A stretch of 64,000 nucleotides of DNA from Eledone cirrhosa. Its lineage: Eukaryota. Under the pieces are notes generated by a model, which saw only the letters and a list, made by a program, of their open reading frames with translations, ran no database searches and had not been told where the DNA came from. The position numbers and the translations under genes are program-made. Position 1 is the first letter of the stretch; each line of letters starts with the position of its first letter. Below are positions 675-53,365 of this stretch, one piece after another. Where the stretch lies: the NCBI GenBank assembly GCA_964016885.1, contig OZ024741.1:299584001-299648000 (forward strand), in the 5' to 3' direction.

Positions 675-2454
675 TATCTATATATATATATTAGAAAGTG
701 AGATTTTCTTTACAAAATGAAAAATAACCGAAGTGTCCTACACGAGTGAAAGTATAAGGAAAAAAGTTGAAATGGAAAATGCAGGTGGAGTCTTATTTAA
801 AAAAAATATATATATATTTATTTGGAACCAAATAAATATATATATTTTAAAAAAAATAAGACTCCACTTGCATTTCCGATTTCATCTTTTTTCCTCATAT
901 ATATATATATATATATGTTTATATCTGTGTGTGTAAGTGTATGTGTATGTGTGTGTATGTATGTGTAGGTCAATGCGTATGCGTTTATGTGTGTGCATAG
1001 GTGCTTCCGTGTGGCTTGTAAGAATACGGTCATCCACGCATACAATGCTGAATCCAGAGATCTTTGAAAGTGGCCTAAATATATTAGGGAACCATGTGGT
1101 GCTACTCCTCACAATGAGTGACCTGTTTTAATAAACTGAATTAATAATGGATCCTACTGTTACTCCTAACGTGGAAGGGGGGAAGATAGTCAAATACGGG
1201 GCATTGAATAACTACTTCATTTTCGTGCCGGTCATCTGCTCCGAAAGCATTGTTTTTTTCTGCAAAATTGAGAGGAGATAATCTCGCCTGATAAAGGAAC
1301 ACGGGAAGTTATTTCTCTGTTATAACGCGAGACACTGGCTGGTCTCTGAAATATCGCCTTCAACAATTTGTCCATGTGAAGTAGCTGAGATATACCACCT
1401 AAACTGAGGTGTAGAATCTGCCGTATTCTTCCCATTCCCTTCACTAATTAAGATTGTTTTTTTTTCGTTTTCATTATTTTATAGTAAACATTATATAATC
1501 CCACTGAGATGAACTAACAATTTACTCTGAGTCTCTCTCACAATGTTACACACACATACACACCCATATATGCATACAACTTTGTTCACTCATTGTTTAT
1601 ATTCTTTCACTAGTTGCATTCATTGAACAGAACGTCACAATACGTTCCACATTTCAAAATATACACCCAACTTAGAAATCACTAAACGTTAGTGACACAT
1701 TATATATGATATAAAATGATAATTATATGCATTTTTCAGAAATATTAATTTCATGATATTAAATCATTGGTACGTTTGATATAACGCGGGAGCGTCAATA
1801 ATTTGAATTAACCTTATGGGATTAATATTCATTCTACCCGGTGAGACACTGGATGTTACAGCGTTGGCAAATGATCGGAGAAATTATAACAGACGATCCT
1901 ATAGTCCGATCAAATATTTGACAACCTCTCTAGTGTTGCTGTAATGAAAAGAACGTAAAGTAGTATTTGTGGTGCCATAAAATATCGCTCCCACTGCAGC
2001 CTGTAAAGTTTTTGAAGCTGGAAATTGTATCTAGCCGTAGAAACACCGACGGATATGGAACGTATGAGCAAGAAACAATCGCTTTGGCCAGTCTGATCGC
2101 AGAATGTGAGAATTCCTGCAAGCTATGCCACCGTGGAAAGCGAACGTAATATGATGTCAAGGATAACGGTGTTTTCCTCCAATCATACACAAACCTCTGG
2201 ACACAATGGACAATGTGATTTTTAAAAAACTACCAAACGGTATTGTCATGGAAGATAACTTTCCGATAATAGGTCTACTCAATACCACGTGACGTGGGAC
2301 TGAACAACTACAACTACAAGAATGCATTGCAAATATGAACAACATAGCAAACACGTAATGAAAAGAAACAAACATCAACATTCTATTGATTGAAGATATT
2401 TGTGGATAATTAAAAAAATTGAAATGCTATCGTCTCAAAGCAGTTGCCTATAAT

Positions 2455-3625: not shown

Positions 3626-4180
3626 GATAATAATAATAATCGATTACTATAAATGCTAGTTTTAAAATTATTATTCATAGTAATCGACTATTATTATAAT
3701 AGCCAACTGCTTTCGAATGACTACATTTCCGATCAAGAAAATATTGATTACATGACATAACTCATTAATCTCAAGTCTAAGAAAATGGTAGGTTGATAAG
3801 CAATGTTATATTTTAAAGAATATATTTAATATCGGAAGAGCAATCGAATGTATTTTACAAGATATATCTAAACCTCTTTGAACTAAGATGATGTATGACA
3901 TTTTATTTTTTTTTTTCAAAGTTTGTTTTAACAAAAAGGAAATAGGTCATGCGCACACCAGTGAATTTCTTAAAACACAAACGATTTTAGAAACGCATAT
4001 AGGAGGAGGAGAAAAACGCAGCTGAAAGAAATTCTTTATAATATGCTTTCCTATAATCCGGTAAAACAAATAAATCACATTATACAGATACATACGTTCT
4101 TATAATCCACCCATTTTTGTATCTATCTATCTGTCTATATCTATAAACACACACTCACTCGCGCACACATATTCACACAT

Positions 4181-4392: not shown

Positions 4393-4498
<106 letters not shown>

Positions 4499-4667
4499 AG
4501 TATATTTACCAACATATGCGTACAGATGTACACTAATGCTAGCAAATACATAAGTTATGTCATAGTACCTAGGAGGTTCAATGCAGGGGGATGCAGAACA
4601 ATTATATGAAAGACGTAAAATAAGAAAATTTTAAAAATTAAAAATTAACTTACTTACTAAAATTTTC

Positions 4668-4749
4668 ACTCCTACTAATTAGTTTCTGTAATTGGATAAA
4701 GATAGTTACGCAATGTAACCATCGAGAATTCATTACGTCATCAGGGAGT
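4668..4749 (-). ncRNA. Type I hammerhead ribozyme (intact core, GUA triplet)
   Basis: Minus strand: ACTCC-CTGATGA-CGTAAT...ATTACA-GAAA-CTAATTAG-TA-GGAGT. Stem I is ACTCC/GGAGT; stem III is the palindrome ACTAATTAGT. Confidence 0.85.
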
Positions 4750-5205
4750 CTATTCTCAGCTAAGTCTGCAAGCAATGCGCGGACACTAGGGACTCATATA
4801 AAAATAATAATTCGGTGGATGGAACAGCTAGTGGGGACTGAATTCCATAGCACTGAAAAAGTTCACTGTCTATGGTCAAGTGGCAGATTCTAAAGAATCA
4901 ATCACGTGACACTGAGGCAAGTCAGTAGGAGTGGGATGGTATTATGACAAGAGCCTACTTCCACTACAATGAGTTAGCAGTGGATTTGGCAAGTTTGCTC
5001 AACAAATAAATAATTTGGAGATAAATATAGAGAATTAGTATATTTACCAACATATGCGTACAGATGTACACTAATGCTAGCAAATACATAAGTCATGTCA
5101 TAGTACCTAGGTGGTTCAATGCAGGGGGATGCAGAACAATTATATGAAAGACGTAAAATAAGAACATTTAAAAAATTAAAAATTAACTTACTTACTAAAA
5201 TGTTC

Positions 5206-5287
5206 ACTCCAACTAATTAGTTTCTGTAATGGGATAAAGATAGTTACGCAATGTAACCATCGAGAATTCATTACGACATCAGGGAGT
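5206..5287 (-). ncRNA. Hammerhead ribozyme copy with mutated core (CTGATGT)
   Basis: Same fold as 4668-4749 but with A9>U and a GUU triplet. Confidence 0.7.
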
Positions 5288-5688
5288 CTATTCTCAGCTA
5301 AGTCTCCAGGCAATGCGCGGACACTAGGGACTCATATAAAAATAATAATTCGGTGGATGGAACAGCTGGAGGGGACTGAATTCCATAGCACTGAAAAAGT
5401 TCACTGTCTCTCGTCAAGTGGAAGATTCTATAGAATCAATCACGTGACACTGATCTACTGCTAACTCATTATAGTGGTAGTAGGCTCTTGTCATAATACC
5501 CTCCCACTCCTACTGACTAGCCTCAGTGTCACGTGATTGATTCTTTAGAATCTGCCACTTGACCAGAGACAGTGAACCTTTTCAGTGCTATGGAATTCAG
5601 TCCCCACTAGCTATTCCATCCATCGAATTATTATTTTTATATGAGTCCCTAGTGTCCGCGCATTGCCTGGAGACTTAGCTGAGAATAG

Positions 5689-5770
5689 ACTCCCTGATGA
5701 CGTAATGAATTCTCGGTGGTTACATTGCGTAACTATCTTTATCCCATTACAGAAACTAATTAGTTGGAGT
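5689..5770 (+). ncRNA. Type I hammerhead ribozyme (intact core, GUU triplet)
   Basis: ACTCC-CTGATGA(5694)-CGTAATG...CATTACA-GAAA(5752)-CTAATTAG-TT-GGAGT. Confidence 0.85.
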
Positions 5771-8149
5771 GAACATTTTAGTAAGTAAGTTAATTTTTAA
5801 TTTTTAAAATTTTCTTATTTTACGTCTTTCATATATATATATATATCTATATATATATATAAATATGTATGTATACATAAGAATCAATCTATCTAACTAT
5901 AAATCTACCTGTTTACTTATAACAGTATCGGGGATATGGAGATAAAGGAGGCAATCTTCACCAAACAATACAAATATTCCCTTAAATGACAATATGTTTG
6001 GGGCGAAGCAACGTATCTAATCTATCCAATGGCCCAAATATGAATTAGGCCTTAACCATCACCAGATCTCAAGCGAACATGGTCTCTAACGCCAGACAAC
6101 GTAAAATATATCTCCACTATCTCTGTGATCAATAATCCTAGTCTGCACTAGTCCATGTAACAAACATATATGGACAATTTTCATCGCTCATTAAACCCTA
6201 TATCTCAAATACACATTCCGATCCTCACGCACATCCGTTCGCTAAACAAGTTGAACTGCTTCCTGAAGTTCGGCAACATAGATATAATTACATCATAGCT
6301 AGATATTTCTCAGTCAACATTATACACCATATCCGATCTTCACAAATAATACAAATATGTTATATCTGGATCGTGTTATGGAAAACTTTTTTGCAATTTC
6401 AAATGAAAGAAGAAGTGACTATTCTTATTTATTGTCAGTGTAGTTTCCTATCACTCAATAATATAGAGCAGCCGCTACAACAACAAGCAGTCGTCCAACC
6501 AGAGGCCAACATGACTAAAAGGAATACATCTTCGATTCCCTGGAAGATGACCAACTAGAAACTGCGACAAACTACGACAAAGCAAAATGATTAAGGACGG
6601 TAGTCTTCGTTTTGAAGTACAGCGTTACCTCAGTACATATCTCATTTTCATGAGAGCTTACGAGTAGAAAAGTGGTAGAAACAGTAGAATGACCAGCTAA
6701 ATGACGTGCTTTCTTTTATATTTTGAGTTCAAATCCTGCTGTATTCATACATACAATGTAATGCATTAAAACAAATAATTCTTTAACTTACATATTTGTG
6801 GCCTTCTGGTAATCTATGAAATCTGAATTAATAATATTATATCTTAAAAATCCCTGTCAAAAAGAATAATAACAATAAACTAGGCCTTAAATCTGATACA
6901 ATGTGGGATCAGTGATGTTAGACATAATTATTTGTTGTAAGAAAACTCTAATAACACATCTATTTTATTGTTAGGTGTTATTTCGTGTCTCAATATTAAC
7001 ATATTACGCGATATAGAAGCTTCATGTATCGTATTTTCTCTATGCATATAGTGACTGGTAGTCAATTTATATCTATTGATCAAGTATTACCAAGCATAAG
7101 TTGATTTCCATAATAGTTGCTACAAGGCTGGAATCAAATTCTAGAAATTCTATTCCTCTCACAATGTAAAGACGATAGATACTAAATATGTATTGACATG
7201 ATGAATGCTTACCGAAATACAGGTTAATTAAAAGTTCTGATTAATGTAATAGCATGCCTTTACCATCTAGTCTGTTCTTAATTTAACACAGCCTAATTAT
7301 TCTTATTGGTTAAATTGTGAAGCCCTAATGTTGGATGGAGAAATTACAACATAATAGCCTGGACATTTTAATGTGAAGTCCCGTAAATACTCTCCCAGGG
7401 TCAAATATGTAGTACCATTTGCAGCCCATCTAGGTATAATATCTAATACATAATTCCATAATTTTCCTTCAAAATAATCTAATGATATAAAAGATTTAAA
7501 TCCTCTAATAGCGTATATATTTTCTCCGATAAAACGAAGAAAATCTATCCAGCCGTTAAAGATGGTTACAATCAGCTAATCCTCTAACATCATTAATACG
7601 TATCACAAAAAATATGGTAGATTCCTATAACTACATAAATGATGAGGCTACGTCTATTGCCTGAACGTTATAAAATAAACATGTGGATAGAATACCTACT
7701 CTAACGTGACACCTCTATTTCTCTGATGAGGAGCAAGGCTGAATTCACCAACAAACCCAGCTATAGATTACAGCACCACATCAGAACTAAATTAGGATGA
7801 GCTAGTTAGAAAGTATTAAAAGGTATATATATATGTGATATATATGTACACAGTAGAGAACACATTAACCTCTTACAACTGATCATGACATAAATCTTAT
7901 AGTTGATCAGTGATATTGCCTATTTTGGCATTGTGGAGTTTATCCTTCAATTTCTGAACCACCATTAGTGACAGATTTAGAATAGCTCCGTTGGTTCAGT
8001 ATTATCAGGGATCTTGAAATCCATGCCACGATGCACGCCTTCTATGTGGGTAAAGAAATCCTAAACAGAACATCAATTTCTTGTCTTTGGGTATCATAAG
8101 ACAACACTGATGCATGACTTGGTTGGATTAATATTCTTGATATACTAAA

Positions 8150-10755: not shown

Positions 10756-10811
10756 ACTGCCTGATGAGGTCGTAGACATTCAATGGCTATCATCGAAATA
10801 TATATAGCAGT
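10756..10811 (+). ncRNA. Type I hammerhead ribozyme in a ~285 bp unit (10573-10857) between (TA)n tracts
   Basis: ACTGC-CTGATGA(10761)-imperfect stem II-GAAA(10795)-TATATA-TA-GCAGT. Confidence 0.75.
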
Positions 10812-10878
10812 AAATAAAGGATTATGAGTTCATGCAATTGACTTATGTTTCGTCACTATATATATATATATATACATG

Positions 10879-17022: not shown

Positions 17023-18163
17023 GCAGATCCTCAGCTCGTAATGGTCATGGTTATATGGAATAGGGAGGACAACCGTATGAACGCGCAGGTGCAGAAACGG
17101 TCACTTCACCCAGGCAATATAAAACTGCGGCCGAACGGTGTAAGGCAAATAACTGCGAAAGTGTCGAAAAGTTCTAGTTGATAAGAAAATTAGGATTTTG
17201 TTGTTATTCAATCCGGAGCTTTGTAGTTATGTAAGAGGTGTTTCCAGACATGTGGGCAACCTGTGAAGATTTCAATACTTGGTGTTTAGGTAATCGCTGT
17301 TAAGTAATCTCTTTAGAATATTTATCTTTTCATCAATACATAGTCCACAAGACGGAGGTTCCTTGCGTAAGGCTTGGACTTAGTGATGGCTTTCCATTGA
17401 ATGGAGTAGTTTATACTTGAGTCCTTGAGGGACCATACGTGGCTCGCGAGTTCGTGGATGATATTTTCGGGTACCTAAAGGTCGACTGATGGTTCAGGAA
17501 GCGTTTCGTAAATCAGCCCTCCGCCATTACCACATAGGATTTGACCTCCTGTGGTTGATTTTGTCGGTTGGAAGTGACCACAGCTTCATAAACTACAGCG
17601 GCTGTGTTGCATTGCTGTTGAAGGGGACAAGCTTCAGGCTTTCGGCAAGAGCACCCTGGTGCGGTGTTGCTATTCGAGCTGTTGGTGATGTGGGCCTTCA
17701 TATTCTTAGCGCAGGAGTACCCTAGTTTTACTTTCTGTCTGTTAGAGATGGAGCGGTATTTGTGACCTATGGGAAAGTTTCTAGCTATGATGGCTAAAAA
17801 TATTGTTCCTACATTGGTTTTAACGTTGAGTGAAAAGGGAGGAGAGAACCAGATAGCCTGTCTATTGTTACGCTTTCTTTTCTTATTGCTGTTGTTGTTA
17901 TTGGGAGAGTAAGTGATAGGTTGCAAGAAGCCGCTGTTAGCTAACGCCGTGTTATAGTAGGGTGCCGCTCTATCAAAGATAGCTTTATTAGAGGAGAGGT
18001 TAGAGATTCTAGTACTGATATTATTTACGAAGTTTCTAAAAACAGTGGGAGGGTGGCATGAGTCCTTGTAATAATTGAGTTTTTCGTTAAGCTTATGGAA
18101 GGGTCTGTATGTGTGTCTGCGAAGGTCTAAATTAATGTCTAAGAAATCTACGCTAGAGAATGT
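17023..18163 (-). mobile_element. 5'-truncated Penelope-like element (Naiad-like): RT C-terminus plus GIY-YIG
   Basis: VDFLDINLDL...RPFHK, IWFSPPFS, CSCRKPEACPL linker, VVYEA...YVVMAEG. Inserted between microsatellites. Confidence 0.9.
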
Positions 18164-21100
18164 TATATATATATACATATATATATATAGAGAGAGAAAG
18201 TGAGGGGGGAGATACATACATATTACTACAGAGTTCCAATGGTTATTTTACTCAGATTCTTTACTTTGACTTAATATGCTGTAAAACAATTGTATATTTA
18301 TAAAATAGTTATCTTTTACGTTTTATAGCAAATATTAAATATGGTTAATAACGACAGCAAAGCAGCCGTAGAACTAGTTGTAGGTCATGTAATAATGAAA
18401 TTATAGCAATATCCACGGCCTTATTAATAACAGTAGCCGTTTTTGAAAGGCAAAGAAGAAGGTTTATAGCAACAAATGGAAAACATTTTAAGGGAATAAA
18501 AGAGAGAAAAGTTTCCCGATGAAATGCAGAATGAAAAAAGAATGGAAGAAATGGGAATGAGAACAGAACAAACATGAATAATTAGAATTCATATTGAAGA
18601 AATACATGAGTCGAAAGCATGAGAAATATATGAAAGAGGACAATGAAACTGAGCATGGCTATATTACTGCTGAAACTGCTGGTGGTGATGATGATTATCA
18701 AGCAGTTTAAAAAGGAAAATGATCGGAGAAAAGGAATGACAATTTGCAGAAGCAACTCGTCCTTCAATTAGCATGTTTGATGTAAGACGCTGGCGTATTT
18801 GATGGCAATATCATCGGAATATCAAATTACATACAATTACTTCAGTCAGAATGTTTGTGAATTAGTAATCCCATTAGATTATGGGAAAAAGAAATGAAAA
18901 AGATTGAAAAAAATAAATTTCATTATAAAAACAAGCACCTGCCAAATATCAAGTACGACACAAGTTTAATGTATTCTCAAAAAAAATCAATGTCACTTAA
19001 ATTATTTAATAATCCACTACAAGTTAAAAATTTGAACATGAAAAAAGAGTTATCTTAAAAACAATAAAAAACATTGTTATGAAACTACAAATAAAAACAA
19101 ATATTAACATAAACATGTCTAGAAATTGCTAAATCGAGGTGGAACGTTATAAAAAGTTACATAAATTCTATATATAATAAAATTGATACTATATATATAT
19201 GTATATTTTATAGGTATATACATATATTACATTCGATCGTAACTTTTCCCGAGTTTGTTTTGCTTTTACCAAGTCATATATTTTAAACTTTTTAAGAATA
19301 ATTTTTCGTATGCACAAATAATATGTTGTTCCCCACCAACACATCGTAAACTCCTATCTATGTTCGTTAATGGATATTGATGTGTATATATATAAAAACA
19401 TACGGAAATAAATTTATGCCTCTGTATATATATATATATATATATGCATATATATGGAGGGGGCGTTTGTTTCTGTACGCAAAAGAGAAAAATTCAATCA
19501 AGATATGATGTGGATTTAAATATATGTGTAAAATGTATTAGTACTTTCACTTATGTCTAAATTAATGTCTGTTTCTTATGAGAAGTTGCAGACATCTATT
19601 ACGGTCTAGAAATGTTTATACCCTCAATTGGAGTATTATATTTTCAATTGTACTTGGTAGTATATACAGTATTAAAGGGGAGATTGTAACAGTTCTCTCA
19701 AGATAAAGACAATTATAATATTAAAAATACAGATGTTTTTTTTATTTAGCCACTACTCCAGAAATATATGAGAAATCGAACATTCGGTTTCATCAACTCT
19801 AAGTACCTGCCTGGTATGTTCTTGTATCGACCTCTAAATGATGAAATGCTGAATTTAAATCTGCAGGATTACAATCCAAAATGTAAATCGTCGGAACAAA
19901 TGCAGCAAATCATTTGTTCAACATTCTAATGATTTTGTTAATCCTCCAACTTCAGGCTAAAATCTACATACTTTGGAGTAGAATCAGTACAACCGATTAG
20001 TAGTTTTAATTCTGATAGTACCTTCGTATTTTTACCTCTATTTTTTTTGCTTTTCATCCATTACGGTTCTAAAATTCATTAGAAGTAAGATTTACATTCG
20101 GTAATATATTTAAAGAGAATAGACAAAGTGTAAAAATGATGTGACAGGAAAATATGTAAACTTGTGGTCTGTGTTTACAATCTGAAAGTTTAAGCTTTGC
20201 AAGGTTGTTCCATTAAATTATCTATATTGATTGAATCCATCCTCCTCTCTTATTTGCATATATATTAGATATTCCTCCAGGGTATCCAATTAATAATGGT
20301 GATATATATCAACTAATACCTTAACACTTCACACAAAGTAGAATATTTTATTTTAATCATTTTCTAACCCAGAAAAGAGAGAGAGAGAAAAACAAAAAAG
20401 GAAAAAAAAATATTTTTCTTCCTAATAATCGTCTCTTTCTCCCTGTTTTCATATATATATATCTTAACTCGTGTGCCTCCTCTTCACATTTCATTATTAT
20501 TATTATTCACCCCGACACGAGATACAGAAAATGCCTACTAAAATAAAAACAGACTCCACTCTCATTAGCATCAATCAAAAGATACTCCAAGAACTACAAA
20601 CTATTAACTCTAATTTGTCAATACTCACCAACAAATTAACTCTACAAGTGAAGAAACAATCCCCAAATACACATCCTATGAAATCAACAACAATATCAAT
20701 AACTTATGTGAAACAATAAAAACACACCTGAATAACAACACAAACCCTATTCAAACGAACGAAAAAACACATGACACTAATACACTTACAACTTAACAAA
20801 TAAAAAAGAAATTAATACCACAATGGTAGACATCTCTTAAAAACAGGAAATTCTCCTTTTGGAAGATAATACAAAACAATAACAAAGCGGAGATCTATGA
20901 AAAATTGATTAACTCATCCCCATTAATCTTCCCCCGCAAACTACAAATTAAAACCATCCCAAACGAACCAGAGACACAAAGACGCCTCAGGGAAATAATG
21001 GCACTTGATAACATAAAAACCGAAATTGAACTCCTTAAATTAAGAGCCGAAGCAAAAGAAGATAGGATCAAATCAATCGACGATGAGATTAATCAACCAA

Positions 21101-28253: not shown

Positions 28254-28361
28254 ATATTACTAACATATGTATATATATATATATACAATATATTACTATT
28301 TGGAAACTACATTTATAAAACCATATTTATTTTATTATATATATTTCAAGGGAAACCAAGG

Positions 28362-28435
28362 TAAATTACAGATTTGTTTTATAAATAAATATTGACATAC
28401 CCAGAAAAAGGCAACCTTAACCGTTGGAGCTTCCT

Positions 28436-28493
<58 letters not shown>

Positions 28494-28620
28494 CTGCATA
28501 TATATATATATATAGCTGCATATATATATATATACATATATATCCAGGAAGCTCCAACGGTTAAGGTTGCCTTTTTTCCGGGTATGTCAATATTTATTTA
28601 TAAAACAAACCTGTAATTTA
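28362..28620. repeat. Inverted repeat (~80 bp arms) around a (TA)n spacer
   Basis: TAAATTACAG...GAGCTTCCTGGATA pairs with TATCCAGGAAGCTC...CTGTAATTTA. Confidence 0.9.
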
Positions 28621-28650
28621 TCTGATGAGAGTGCATATATATATATATAT

Positions 28651-31130
28651 CCCAACTGGTGCTCGAACCAACGAGGTGCCACAAAAACGTCCTAGACTTA
28701 ATGTTCAGCAATCACACTGACAATATCCACAATATGACAATATCCACAATATGACTCTCTGGTCATGACATGGTTCTCTGTGATCTGAGATTCCACCGTC
28801 CAATATACAAACCCAATGTCATCTCTCCTGTCCATCCGTTTGACGCTATGGATTTCCACAATGCAAACTGGGAAGCGATCAGTCATGATCTTGCACATGT
28901 CGACTGGTCCTTCACGCACACTCATACACCCACTAACATCAAAAAGTCCTGGCAGACATTTGTGGACACTGTTACAAACATATGTGCTAAGCACACCCCA
29001 TTAAGAACTATAAACAAATCTAAGAGCAGAATCCCTAGAAGTAGAAAAATGCTCATCAGAAAAATTAAGAGAACGAACAAAAACATCAACAAGCTGAAAT
29101 ACTGTCAGCAGCAACACATCAACTTGACTGCCATTTCATCACTAGAGATTAAAAAACATAACCTCCAAAACAACATAATGTCCCTCATCAACAATCAGAG
29201 AAGAGCTGAAGAGGCCTGGGCCATTGAGAAGATCAAACTCAATCCCAAAGTGTTCTTTTCATTTGCAAAAAAACACAAAATCACTGGCTCTACTGTTGGC
29301 CCTCTAATTGATGAAAATGGCACTCTTCAAGACAATGCTAAAACCATGGGTGAGATACTGCAGAAACAATACTGCTCTGTTTTCAGCAATCCTGATATGG
29401 CCGATCTGGGCTGTATCGGCGATGTTACTCCCCATTACACCTTATCGGACATAACGTTTGTCGCCCCTGATGTCTTAGCGGCAATAAAGGAAATCAAGCA
29501 TAATTCAGCAGTAGGTCCCGATAGGTTCCCTGCTTGTGTCTTGAAGGCGTGTCAACACCAACTTGCATCTCCTCTTGCCAATCTGTGGCGGAACTCACTG
29601 GATGCTGGATATGTGCCAGAAAACCTTCTATGCCAGTCTGTTGTCCCAGTTTTCAAAAAGGGAAACAAATCCCTTGCCGTGAATTACCGTCCAATCTCAC
29701 TCACCTCTCATATCATTAAGGTATTTGAGAGAGTGGTGAGATCGCGAATGACCCACTTCCTTGAGAGTAACAATATGCTGAACTCCAACCAGCATGGATT
29801 CCGTAATGGAAGGGATTGCCTGACGCAGCTACTGCATCACTTTGATGACATTTTGAGAGCCTTGGGAGAGGGTTCCAACACTGATGTTATCTACCTTGAT
29901 TTCAGCAAGGCCTTTGACAGGGTTGATCATAACATTCTACTGAGAAAGCTGTCCAATATTGGTGTCACTGGAAAGCTGTTGCAGTGGATCAAGAGCTTCC
30001 TGTCAAACAGAACCCAACATGTTGTAGTTGAAGTAGTCAAATCCAGCCCAGCCAAAGTCAGTAGTGGGGTCCCACAAGGCACTATGTTGGGCCCACTTCT
30101 CTTCATCATCTATATTAATGACATCACTGACATCATCAAACACAGCAACATTAACATTTTCGCTGATGATTCCAAGCTCCAAAAGGTCATCAATGGCGTT
30201 GATGACCGGATAGGCCTTCAGTCAGACCTACTGGCTGTTACCCAATGGGCGGAAAAGAACAACATGTTACTGAACGAAGACAAATTCGAACTGATCCACT
30301 TTGGAAAAGAGGATGCTCTGAAACTCCCGTACTCCCTTCCCTCCGGGGAAACTCTCGTGGCATCTAACAACATCAGAGACTTGGAAGTAACCGTGGACAG
30401 CAACATAAGCTGGGCCACGCATATAAGCAGCAAAGTTGACATGGCCCGCAGAATGTGTTCCTGGATCCTCAGAACCTTCCAGTCGAGAGATTCCCACACC
30501 ATTATCTTTCTCTTCTCTACTTTTGCCCGACCACACCTTGAATACTGTTGTCCAGTGTGGTCTCCCCACACGAAACAAAGTATCATGAAACTTGAAGCTC
30601 CTCAAAGGGCAATCACGAAAAAGATAGATGGCATGTCAGACCTTGACTACTGGGGTCGACTAGAAAACCTGAAACTTTACTCACTCCAACGTCGCCGTGA
30701 GCGTTATATTATCTGCATGATGTGGAAAATGTTCCATCATCACTGCCCAAATGATGTTGGCATCGCCTTCAAGATACACCCAAGGCTTGGGCCCTGTGCT
30801 ATCCGTCCCATACAAAAATCTAAATCGCAACTCATAACAACAATACGGCACAATTATTTCACCTCAAACGGCCCTGCTCTCTTCAACATCACACCAGGAC
30901 ACGTCAAAACAGAAACTGACCACACAAAATTCAAGAAGTCTTTGGACAAATTCCTCCAAGTAATCCCGGACAAACCACCCACACCCGGATATGTCTCCGC
31001 AAACAGTAATTCTCTTCTCGAATGGACCATGGTGCCCAAATCCTGAATTGAAAGACTTCGCCAGGTGGTGCTATTAAGTTAGACATGGCCTGGGCCAATA
31101 CTGGCCAAAACATTTCAAAGTTATTCCAAG

Positions 31131-31133
<3 letters not shown>
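28651..31133 (+). mobile_element. 5'-truncated CR1/L2-like LINE
   Basis: End of APE domain (PTR..NVLDL..SGH), full RT and 3' UTR. Flanked by (TA)n on both sides. Confidence 0.92.
28770..31046 (+). CDS. LINE ORF2 reverse transcriptase (758 aa, N-terminally truncated)
   Basis: Motifs GPD, NYRPISLTS, QHGFR, YLDFSKAFD, SGVPQGTMLGPLLF, FADD, RPHLEY. Confidence 0.92.
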   Translation: MVLCDLRFHRPIYKPNVISPVHPFDAMDFHNANWEAISHDLAHVDWSFTHTHTPTNIKKSWQTFVDTVTNICAKHTPLRTINKSKSRIPRSRKMLIRKIKRTNKNINKLKYCQQQHINLTAISSLEIKKHNLQNNIMSLINNQRRAEEAWAIEKIKLNPKVFFSFAKKHKITGSTVGPLIDENGTLQDNAKTMGEILQKQYCSVFSNPDMADLGCIGDVTPHYTLSDITFVAPDVLAAIKEIKHNSAVGPDRFPACVLKACQHQLASPLANLWRNSLDAGYVPENLLCQSVVPVFKKGNKSLAVNYRPISLTSHIIKVFERVVRSRMTHFLESNNMLNSNQHGFRNGRDCLTQLLHHFDDILRALGEGSNTDVIYLDFSKAFDRVDHNILLRKLSNIGVTGKLLQWIKSFLSNRTQHVVVEVVKSSPAKVSSGVPQGTMLGPLLFIIYINDITDIIKHSNINIFADDSKLQKVINGVDDRIGLQSDLLAVTQWAEKNNMLLNEDKFELIHFGKEDALKLPYSLPSGETLVASNNIRDLEVTVDSNISWATHISSKVDMARRMCSWILRTFQSRDSHTIIFLFSTFARPHLEYCCPVWSPHTKQSIMKLEAPQRAITKKIDGMSDLDYWGRLENLKLYSLQRRRERYIICMMWKMFHHHCPNDVGIAFKIHPRLGPCAIRPIQKSKSQLITTIRHNYFTSNGPALFNITPGHVKTETDHTKFKKSLDKFLQVIPDKPPTPGYVSANSNSLLEWTMVPKS

Positions 31134-31187
<54 letters not shown>

Positions 31188-31196
<9 letters not shown>

Positions 31197-31445
31197 CGTA
31201 AAATAAGAAAATTTAAAAAATTAAAAGAATTAACTTACTTACTAAAATTTCCACTCCAGGAGTGAAAATTATAGTAAGTAAGTTAATTTTTAAAATTTTT
31301 AAAAATTTTCTTATTTTACGTCTTTTATATTATTGTTCTGCATCCTCCTGCATTGAACCACCTAGGTACTATGACATAACCTGTGTCTTTGCTAGCATTA
31401 GCGTACATCTGTACGCATATGTTAGTAGATATACTAAATTCTCTC
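31188..31445. repeat. Fold-back fragment of the 4493-5833 pLTR/retrozyme family
   Basis: 31259-31440 is the reverse complement of about 4495-4672. 31190-31257 is its inverted copy; centre at 31258. Confidence 0.85.
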
Positions 31446-31453
31446 TCTCTCTC

Positions 31454-31485
<32 letters not shown>

Positions 31486-31555
31486 CATGCACATAAATAT
31501 ACATATACATATACATATATACACACACATATATATATATACACATATATATATA

Positions 31556-31704
31556 TAGGAACGAGTGGACCCCGACGGCTGAGCTCAAGCCGTTTCGACG
31601 GCTAATTCTGGACAGAATAAATTCCAATTAACCACTCTACTACCCTAAGTATTGAGTACTTTGGTGCGTTATTGTCCACCTGGTTCCTTACCACATTTCC
31701 TCCG

Positions 31705-36099: not shown

Positions 36100-37450
36100 A
36101 AAAACACCTCTACAGGCAGAAAATGTAGATAGGAAAGAGGTACTCACATAACCATAGTGGCCGTATTTCAGGTTGAGGAGGGGTGGTGGTAGGGTGGGAA
36201 TGAGGTATAGGGGCCAATAGGGGGAGGTCGTTTTTAGCCATCGGGCTTTAACACTGGCTTAAAGTGTTTGAAAGTTGCAAAGTTCTTGTGCATGCAGTTC
36301 GGGCAGTGTTCAGAGAGTTTGTTCAGTAGCGGACCCTTGGCGAATAAAATTTCGTAGCTTTCTGAAATACAAAGGTCGCAGCCCTTGTGTCCTCCGTGGT
36401 AAGCGCGCGCTTTCTGGAGTATTTTCCATTTAAGCGTGAAGGGGGTGGAGTTCCTTTTGAGGTCCTAAACGTAGGAGGCGAGTGTTGTCTGATTTGATTT
36501 GTCCCGTTTTTCTGAAGGAGTGGGTATGGGCATACCAACGGGTCTTAAAGTTGTTGGAGGTCATGCCGATGTAAGTTTTTTTGCAATCCTCGGTGCCTGA
36601 GATGACATCGCATTTGTATACGATATCATTTGTGAGGTATTTGTTTTCAAGTGGGCATGCTTCCTTATTTAGGCAATTACATAGAGCCCCAGTCCGGGGA
36701 TTGGGTTCGGAGGTGGTTGGCTTATTTAATTTTTTAGAATTGTGGTTGGCTATATTCCTAGCTAGGTTAGGTGTGGTGGAGTAAGACAGTCTTATTGTGT
36801 TCTTATTAAAGATGGTATGGTACCTATGTTGTATGGGGAAGTATAATTTCGGCAAAGTGAAGAAAATCCTAGCTATCGGAGTAGATACCTCTCTATTGAA
36901 GGGAGGGTTGTACCAGCTAATCTGCCTATGTCTATTCCTCCTCTGCAATCTTGCGGTGGTTTCTAGGTAAGTTATCTTATCTTTAAATCCGCTACGGGCG
37001 AGGGCGTCATTGTAGTAGGAGGCAGATGCATTACAAATATCTTTGTTGGCGGAGAGGCCAGATATTCTAATAGAGACGCTTTTTACTAGGTTATCAGTGA
37101 TGTTTTGGGGGTAGTTTGAATTAACATTAATATATTTAAGGGACTCGTTAGGTTTGTGGTACGGGTAATAGAGGGAAGTATCTAGGTCGAGAGTGACATC
37201 TAAGAAGTTGGCCCTAGTCAAATTAGATTCTATAGTTATACTAAATCCTAGATTAGAGAAGAAAGAGCTTAAGTTTTTCCGAAACCCATCGGTGGTTCTG
37301 GGGTTAACCTTATGCAGGGCGAAGAGGCCGTCGTCTCGGTATAAACCTCCCGTTAGGCCGGTAAAGCGGTTCTTCAGGTGATGTAGGATGTACAGGCCCA
37401 CAAGGTCGCTAATTTCAGCCGAGTCACTCGCCCCCATGCTTACGTCAAAT
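36100..37450 (-). mobile_element. 5'-truncated Naiad-like Penelope element (RT plus GIY-YIG)
   Basis: FDVSMGASDSAE, GLYRDDG, FLDVTLDL, WYNPPF, CNCLNKEACPL, YIGMTSNNFKTRW. Confidence 0.92.
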
Positions 37451-37464
37451 GTATATATATATAT

Positions 37465-39957
37465 ATAAACACTTTAATACATGAATGCACTTACATCTAA
37501 CTATACACATCAAACATATATATATATATACTTATTTATATACATTTTCACATATATATACATACTTATGGTCGCTTTTAGACACATTCATTATAGCATA
37601 TTTGCACCTATTCTCATCAGCATATCTTTCCATTATTAGTGTGGTAATTTAAGGTTATTAATATACATATATATGTTGAGAAGAGATTGTTTTTATATTT
37701 TTCTAACTAGATTGAGGTTTATATAGTTGGGGTGGATGTCTCTCTTTTATGTAATATTCAACTTGTAGTGGGAAAAAAGGGTTTTAGTTGGGCGACGGCA
37801 GAATAATGTTCGTTCAATTCTGTTATTCAGCAATTTCCTCTTGTGTGTGATTATGTAATAGATCTCAAGATCACACAATTTGAGACATTTTGGCTCCTGG
37901 AAAAGCTTTGGGTTTTAGCTAATTTCTCCCATTTTAGGGTAAACTTTTGATCGCTATCCCTGAGCGTCCAAGCTTTTTCTGCTAAAGTTGTTACATTTCT
38001 TTGGCTCTGGTGTTTTATTGAGTAAGAATGCCTATATAATCGAGATTTAAACGATGTTGCCGTTGATCCCACGTAATACCACTCATTGCCTCCGGATTTA
38101 ATGGTACACTTATAAATAATATTTTTTTCCAGGCAGTTATTGCCGAGGGGGCAGTTGTCAGGATAGGTGCAGTTACAGTTGTGTACGTTGGGTTTTCTCT
38201 GGAGTAGTATTGCGAACGAACTTAGGTGTGGTTTATTTATGTTCTGTAGTGTATTGTCTACTGTTTTTTTTGTGTTCTTTGTACTTAAGTTTTTAGTGTT
38301 TTCGTTTAACCTTCTAGTATTGATCTTTTTTATGTGTTGTTCAAGGTTTAACGCTGTAGAGTATGACAGTCTTATAGTGGTAGGGTTTAGGATTTTGTGG
38401 TATTTGTGTGATGTAGGAAAATGTCTCTTAATTATTTTAAAGAAGAGTACTGGTAAATGTGTACTAATGGAACTATTGTATTTTGGGTTATACCATAAGT
38501 ACTCTTTGCATCGCTTTCTATTAGTTTTGTTTGTTGGTTTATTGGTGTGTATACTATGGTAGTAAGTGTGGTTTGGTGTTGTGTTATTATATCTACCTAT
38601 GTGGGATTTAATTTGGGTGTTTTGATTGTTCTCATCTATATACTCTATTTTGTTGAGGTACCCTGCTTTACTAAGGGCGTTATCGTAGTACTCGGCGTGT
38701 TCCTTAAATACTTGTATGTTAGAAGATAGACCCGAGATTCTAAGGGAAATACTTTTATGGATAGATTTAATTATAGAGATGGGGTGGTTAGACCCAACAT
38801 TTACGTACTTGAGATGTTCATTCAATTTATGAAACGGTTTAATCAGACCAGAGTTTAAATTGAGTGTGACATCCAGGAAGTTAACTACTTTAAGGTTGTA
38901 TTCATATGTTATAGTTAGTCCTATTTCGAGTAGTAGTTTTCTTATATCTTTGCGCAGTTTTTCTAGTTTTTGGTTATTTAGGTTTTTAACTAGGAGCAGA
39001 ACATCGTCGCGGTATATTCCGCCGTGGAGATTGCTGAATTTTTCCTGGAGTCTAAAGGCGATAAATAACCCCACAATATCAGTTATTTCCGCCGAATCGT
39101 TAGAGCCCATTGTTATGTCAAAGTGAGAGGGTCTATCTTTACGTACCCAATAACTGTTCTCAAATTTGACTATAGTTTTCCTAGCTTCTAATATAATCTT
39201 AATTTCATCGTTTGTAAGGTCAGAGTTATCCTTAGGAAACTTAATGGCTCTATTTATACACATGAACGCGTATGTATGTACATGTATATATGTGTATATA
39301 TATATGTATGCATGTGCATATGTATGTAAGTATGAGCATGTAAGTATGTGTATGTGAGTATATGTATTTTGTAGAGGTGTGCATATATGTTTGTGTGTGA
39401 ATGCGTGGGCGAAAGGATACGTACACTTGAAAGAAAAATTTAAGTCTGAATGTTAATTAAGTGCAAACACAAAACCAACCACGCATATCTGTACTATCTC
39501 TAATCCTTCTATAGATTTAGAAAAATAACCAATAATATATTGGTCAAAACAACAGATGGGAATCTAATTACTCACTGCCACCAAAAATTCTCACTGCTAT
39601 CAAAAAACCACTCCCTCAACTATTCTTCTAACAACTTCACCCCTCCCTCCTAATATTCTCTATAAAAACCAAACAGGTCCTCAGTAAAATTATTCCGACG
39701 AAATGACAGTTGATAATAACATTGAAATATTGAATGTCTGCATAACTAATACTTTGTAGATAGCAGCTGTTTTCAGGTTATGTAACTGTTATAGAAACAC
39801 GTGTCAATAAATTCCTTTTAACTAAACTGTATCCATTAAAATCCTTCTATTTTTCTCCGGATTACTTTTGGAACTACAACTGGAACCGTCGAGCAAACTC
39901 TACGTGAGCTGTCCATCTACTGTGTGTAATATTTATATTACAACACTACGGAAAATA

Positions 39958-45529: not shown

Positions 45530-46305
<776 letters not shown>

Positions 46306-53254: not shown

Positions 53255-53365
53255 ATAGGAAAAGAGTGAGGAGCCCGACGGCTGAGCGCCGGACGTTTCG
53301 GCAGCTAGATCCGAGCTGCCGAAACGGCCGGAGCTCAGCCATCGGGATCCTGACTCTTTTCCTAT
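53255..53365. repeat. GC-rich ~52-bp-arm hairpin built from hammerhead halves
   Basis: ATAGGAAAAGAGT...CGTTTCGGCAGCT-AGATCCG-AGCTGCCGAAACG...ACTCTTTTCCTAT. Confidence 0.85.

Follow-up and report, generated by a model that had tools for sequence, protein, structure and literature searches.

The palindrome CACTCC-A-GGAGTG, read directly from the sequence at positions 31252-31264 of the window (the whole 64,000-nucleotide stretch of DNA analysed here), is an insertion of a non-coding, hammerhead-bearing retroelement in head-to-head form. It is present as the earlier note described, centred on the A at 31258, and it belongs to a class of junctions at 16 sites genome-wide in which both arms start at the first base 3' of a predicted ribozyme cut. 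We read this junction class as a footprint of partial self-cleavage in vivo (probability about 0.8, judged from sequence patterns).

Positions within the element are numbered from the predicted hammerhead cut, with +1 as the first base 3' of it and the unit at 4490-5030 of the window as reference. Aligned to this unit, both arms start at +1. GGAGTG corresponds to the first bases 3' of the predicted cut of the 4668-4749 hammerhead, as had been claimed. The following parts were identified in and around the insertion.

28755-31046: ORF of a LINE-type RT (RVT_1, E=2.7e-30), with its 3' end just before the left TA flank
31123..31190: (TA)n microsatellite target, left flank (sequence)
31187..31257, minus strand: inverted arm A, +70 back to +1 (alignment to unit)
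31258: lone centre base A (sequence and genome-wide spectrum of centre bases)
31259..31444, plus strand: direct arm B, +1 to ~+183, equal to arm A plus a 'tail' of ~110 nt (alignment)
31445..31557: (TC)n/(TA)n right flank (sequence; target-site duplication unreadable)

The inverted repeat spans ~31187-31330, with 89% arm identity over 140 aligned bases, and the last 4-5 bases of the shorter arm A overlap the TA repeat. The arms are 4 substitutions and 2 indels apart and both stop at the standard ends of the family, which makes an assembly fold-back unlikely. None of four public contig sets compared spans the junction. The centre A could have been added without a template, or could be one arm's -1 base, since the window copy has GUA, a minority triplet in this family. 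Thus, the earlier statement that nothing upstream of the cut is present holds for both arms, but possibly not for the single centre base.

The hammerhead that defines the numbering lies in a second insertion of the window (4490-5835).

4490..5453, minus strand: direct arm B, ~1.8 units, 5' end at -242 (alignment)
4668..4749, minus strand: type I hammerhead, predicted cut between 4673 and 4672 (motif and covariation)
5453..5835, plus strand: inverted arm A, -312..+70, then TA repeat (alignment)
5689-5770: full hammerhead with GUU triplet, inside inverted arm A

The hammerhead at 4668..4749 consists of stem I (ACUCC/GGAGU), CUGAUGA, a stem II that is long and mismatched (C.A) at its base, GAAA and a palindromic stem III. 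The upstream unit of arm B carries the core variant CUGAUGU. This insertion inverts at -242/-312, far from the cut. Further palindromes or inverted repeats of the window (753-899, 3627-3700, 28359-28623, 45864-46305 and 53257-53365) are possibly head-to-head insertions of other families.

The host genome is 3.0 Gb and rich in TA repeats. The unit of the family is ~540 bp and non-coding (no ORF of at least 120 aa was identified within it), and occurs as monomers, short tandems (e.g., with 539-540-bp spacing in locus L017) and long arrays. Exact matches to +1..+20 number 6174 genome-wide. An array of at least 30 family units of ~555 bp, at G000:C1:301,308,547-301,327,435, is a candidate source locus.

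The motif has a CUGANGA and GAAA core, a NUH triplet and three helices with an open stem I, as expected for a type I hammerhead, and the core is invariant or nearly so across 32 diverse copies. In these copies 89.8% of pair cells are standard and double changes number 72 (24.7 after shuffling), falling in 11 of 23 pairs; the shuffles overstate this support, since the structure was drawn from one aligned sequence and the rows are related. The triplet is GUU in 213 of 223 family hammerheads in the loci examined and GUA in 3, so the GUA described earlier is correct for the window copy but is not the family norm. Stem III has 3 bp and is self-complementary (palindrome ACUAAUUAGU), the form expected of a dimeric fold. 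At the base of stem II a C.A opposition precedes a G-C pair, and the A is invariant in the 32 copies. The ribozyme assignment is based on motif and covariation. No hammerhead is among the 150 of 163 Rfam matches listed for the window. A single-strand MFE fold did not recover the hammerhead (z -1.9) and was not used; such failure is common for motifs of this kind. The C.A mismatch and the 3-bp stem III suggest that the family ribozyme is probably weak and dimeric, by analogy with PMC4209133, parts of which describe animal PLE hammerheads as poor cutters in vitro and a bulged 5' base as usual in them. An unrelated type I hammerhead-like motif occurs at 10756-10812 (+) of the window, with stem I ACUGC/GCAGU, CUGAUGA, GAAA and an (AU)n palindromic stem III.

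Judged by its sequence, the element is retrozyme-like and not an autonomous Penelope. It consists of non-coding tandem repeats with one hammerhead per unit, as in animal non-LTR retrozymes, and the ORF-free unit does not encode the RT and GIY-YIG protein found between the pLTRs of autonomous Penelope-like elements. Three ORF fragments of the window (36430-37473, 37851-39452 and 17513-18247 (-)) are presumably PLE-like, with RT and GIY-YIG-like motifs; Pfam named no family for them. Relatives of these fragments lie near several family loci, and none of the PLE-like ORF pieces found near family loci is contiguous with the arms. Among the 197 loci screened, no autonomous partner sharing the pLTR was identified.

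Exact ends of the form '+70 then TATA' occur at 2692 sites genome-wide. Our breakpoint sample comprised the first 100 of these (99 loci) and 53 loci from two variant anchors, and 149 arms were analysed after removal of two duplicates and one edge case. The first 30 loci, which are biased towards full hammerheads, were excluded from every breakpoint count. An inverted partner was identified for 99 of the 149 anchored arms, and 50 are solo (a few of these were probably misplaced by the gap filter). The partner arms mostly end at +175 to +193 in local alignments, with a natural end at ~+182. The family therefore has two fixed 3' ends, +70 and ~+182, with TA-repeat flanks. The inverted 5'-truncated arm, the optional 3' tail and the microsatellite target are those of a PLE-mobilised insertion. 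Overlaps at the junctions are mostly 1-8 bases. A second RT start is the best reading of the fixed +70 end, since this matches the two start sites and the two-strand extension described for the anole PLE in parts of PMC11167929. Solo arms (e.g., L046, L116, L127, L147, L153, L181, L189 and L196, which are partnerless) often begin at +12..+18 directly after the TA repeat, and 9 of the 50 begin within +1..+18.

Breakpoints are found along the whole unit, yet their distribution is non-uniform. Of the 198 ends in the anchored sample, 30 lie in +1..+18, where 9.4 are expected after allowing for the arms that pass each position (p=7e-8, a value that is too strong because a junction's two ends depend on each other); in -18..-1 the count is 10, with 8.4 expected. 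Junctions symmetric within 6 nt make up 14 of the 99 (3.6 after shuffling). The asymmetric junctions (n=79) are not enriched in the interval -2..+18 (12 vs 8.9 expected, p=0.18), and thus the excess at +7..+18 stems from the symmetric class. At -2..+1 the asymmetric junctions have 5 ends where 1.3 are expected (p=0.010).

Most ends lie outside +1..+18 (168 of 198, 85%), and most arms read through the cut at their first encounter with it (85 of 98 inverted and 64 of 76 direct arms). We conclude that cleavage marks a minority of junctions. The proposal that the cut is the mechanism of Penelope inverted pLTRs is contradicted by the 75 of 99 head-to-head junctions with neither end within -2..+18, and by the insertion at 4490-5835; cleavage was accordingly rejected as the general cause of inverted arms.

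For single-base resolution genome-wide, we required mismatches at -12..-9 before an intact +1..+20 and classified the resulting 43 arms by hand. Within the range -8..+1, 33 of the 43 end at -2..+1: extension upstream of the cut is 0, 1 and 2 bases in 10, 9 and 14 arms, and 3-8 bases in the other 10. The same design applied at the base of stem II (31 arms) gave a flat spread, in which 13 of the 31 arms extend by 0-2 bases, and a rate of 0.0029 per base that matches the sample baseline. This control replaced an earlier one at -85, which was dominated by a subfamily variant. The cut differs from the control with Fisher p=0.003, or 0.046 without the longest (8-base) class, and the excess at the cut is ~1.6% of arms, using estimated pass rates. 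Thus the histogram of breakpoints against the cut that the earlier note had called for is non-uniform and, in the sample and the genome-wide patterns together, peaks at the predicted cut to the single base. If all ends were at +1 and any further match were due to chance, 63/23/12% of arms would have 0, 1 or 2 extra T, unlike the 10/9/14 arms found. Untemplated A's on the cDNA or microhomology are needed to account for the extra T's, or else a stop at -1/-2. Three of the 43 matches are short +1..+11/12 repeats ending at +1, as if RT had jumped from an RNA end; such repeats lie right before a second +1 at G000:C3:99945375, C4:2934968 and C26:18660617.

The 16 exact sites join both arms at +1 with 0-2 centre bases (8 with A/T, including the window; 4 with none; 2 with G/C; 1 with AT; 1 with AA/TT). 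Inspection of all 16 showed different flanks, several subfamilies and, in 15, two complete arms. In the four blunt +1/+1 joins, bases from upstream of the cut and microhomology are both absent. The copies at one CTG centre and at both G/C centres that were checked resemble a subfamily whose triplet is followed by an additional G. This junction class is beyond chance.

Palindromes aid joining, strongly only just inside the cut. The word AAAATTTT at +7 is the point of exact join in 11 of the first 50 of 156 matches (~34 if scaled). The same word at +41, where the anchor is better conserved and which every arm reaches first, gives an exact join in 5 of 38, and the +7 copy, 34 nt away, is used ~7x more. 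An exact join was found in 1 of 6 cases for TCACGTGA at -236, and in 4 of the first 50 of 74 matches for the stem III palindrome, which is 12 bp long and lies immediately 5' of the cut. The +41, -236 and stem III controls led us to reject a palindrome effect as the sole cause of the junction.

We consider it probable, with somewhat less confidence than for the footprint itself, that both arms ran off self-cleaved RNA as two separate cDNAs that were then joined. A Penelope-type RT/GIY-YIG protein would act in trans, and two cDNAs would be primed from both ends of a cut (TA)n target, with reverse transcription beginning at +70 where one target end primes and at +182 where the other does. The cDNAs would each halt at a variable point, and their 3' ends would join head to head, mostly via 1-8 bases of microhomology. 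If both templates were cut, both cDNAs would end in CACTCC-3' and could be joined blunt, via one added base (as at 31258), or at AAAATTTT (+7), the first self-complementary word reached when the ends are trimmed. Cleavage would be partial, with most templates read through the ribozyme, and the cut would set the 5' end of ~2% (exact) to 15% (including +1..+18) of arms.

The earlier note instead proposed that a cDNA made on a cleaved template snaps back or jumps at +1 and copies itself into the inverted arm. The surplus of symmetric junctions fits this, as do the locus-private variants common to both arms at the symmetric junctions L130, L143 and L208, which indicate the same RNA or source locus, or later homogenisation; the arms of L138 differ at a recurrent +9 A/C site, and those of L135 also differ at a recurrent site. 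Self-priming has been proposed for palindromic PLE junctions, according to parts of PMC3846280. But a self-copy has no reason to end at +70, which is also the end in asymmetric junctions, and the inverted arm carries more than 15 nt absent from its partner in 49 of 99 junctions, so that arm A was not copied from arm B. These 49 favour two cDNAs. In L139, L143 and L207 the inverted arm is one whole unit longer than its partner, with both arms at standard 3' ends. A loop of 0-1 base, moreover, cannot be closed by a base-paired fold-back. Snap-back is thus disfavoured as a general route and is improbable overall, though it may apply to the symmetric class, whose arms share private variants.

Pausing of RT at the folded core of uncut RNA, with AT-rich palindromes capturing the ends, is about as improbable. 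Extension by 1-2 T past the cut in 23 of the 33 peak ends fits pausing, as does a slight elevation of the bins that cover stem II (0.39-0.42 per 100 nt). Against it, no peak occurs at the base of stem II, which is the longer helix, stem I is already unwound before a stop at +1, and the four blunt joins have no usable microhomology. A second non-coding family with the same two-arm layout (L131, L134, L136, L140, L142, L144 and L238-L257) bears on this reading. It has a hammerhead-like core (CUGAAGA ... GAAA), a hairpin stem III and a mispaired stem I. Symmetric joins in this family fall within the stem III hairpin, on the 5' side of where the cut would be (12 of the first 50 stem III-palindrome matches), which suggests that the region draws junctions regardless. 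Their position would fit a dead ribozyme that is read further upstream or capture by the hairpin, and the family is a possible natural dead-ribozyme control. That the 31258 join was merely drawn from broad breakpoints, or that a longer palindrome later lost its centre, is very improbable. The large share of ends outside +1..+18 and the lack of any exact +1/+1 join among the 99 sampled junctions are in its favour, but chance does not account for 16 independent exact sites, for the rarity of neighbouring symmetric joins upstream (one AT centre in 16) or for the peak (p=0.003-0.046), and the chance or rearrangement reading is already largely refuted.

Returning to self-cleavage, the 16 exact sites and the peak make a fossil of in vivo cleavage likely, for a minority of junctions. 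The claim that the RT template was the 3' cleavage product is similarly supported by the single-base peak but does not extend to the read-through majority. The peak indirectly supports the idea that such weak ribozymes cut in the cells that transmit insertions. The cut is shown to be dispensable for insertion. The twin fixed 3' ends tie retrozymes to the PLE insertion machinery by mechanism, beyond phylogeny, and the breakpoint test can be applied to any genome rich in such elements. We give about even odds to a broader proposal, in which breakpoint maps report germ-line hammerhead activity and, in this family, a dimeric Penelope-type enzyme, priming once at +70 and once at +182 and uniting the two cDNAs, uses cut RNA as a genuine if lesser template. 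If true, cleavage in vivo could be gauged for each subfamily from how high its +1 peak stands, and the main route of retrozyme spread would be twin priming on partly cut linear multimers.

The following comparisons draw on parts of the cited sources. The role of the hammerhead in Penelope-like elements is described as unclear (PMC8557442). Our search, mostly of papers open without subscription and of main texts, found no published map that sets the inversion junctions of PLEs or retrozymes against the cut of the hammerhead. Animal non-LTR retrozymes (Cervera and de la Pena 2020, PMC7229834; Li et al. 2026, bioRxiv 10.64898/2026.07.22.740005) resemble the family in that their tandem units are non-coding, low in GC and each equipped with a single type I hammerhead; these retrozymes are proposed to be non-autonomous derivatives of PLEs. 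Their units are 150-450 bp, compared with ~540 bp here, and the available parts of these descriptions make no mention of inverted arms or twin fixed 3' ends, nor do they place breakpoints with respect to the cut (the words 'junction', 'tail' and 'TPRT' do not occur in the available text of the bioRxiv paper).

Like the family, EN+ PLE insertions (PMC8557442, PMC3846280, PMC11167929) show partial tandems, two RT starts and (TA)n targeting, together with a head-to-head inverted arm that is the shorter one at the 3' end and whose junction has microhomology or palindromes. They differ in that the family has no ORF and a tail of ~110 nt (30-40 in EN+ PLEs). PMC3846280 explains palindromes by self-priming on an antisense template, whereas the family data favour two sense-templated cDNAs. 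In PMC11167929, purified anole PLE protein cut the two target strands, extended each of them and initiated at two sites inside the RNA; cleavage of the RNA was not needed in vitro, and RNA-seq yielded no reads that begin at the cut. The anole PLE thus gave no in vivo sign of cleavage there, whereas the genome of the present family carries one.

The two-arm architecture is already known from PLEs, and ribozyme-shaped 5' junctions are known for R2 (Eickbush et al. 2013, PMC3774820). As in the family, the position cut by the HDV-like ribozyme of R2 is reflected in genomic 5' junctions. [quoted passage not shown]
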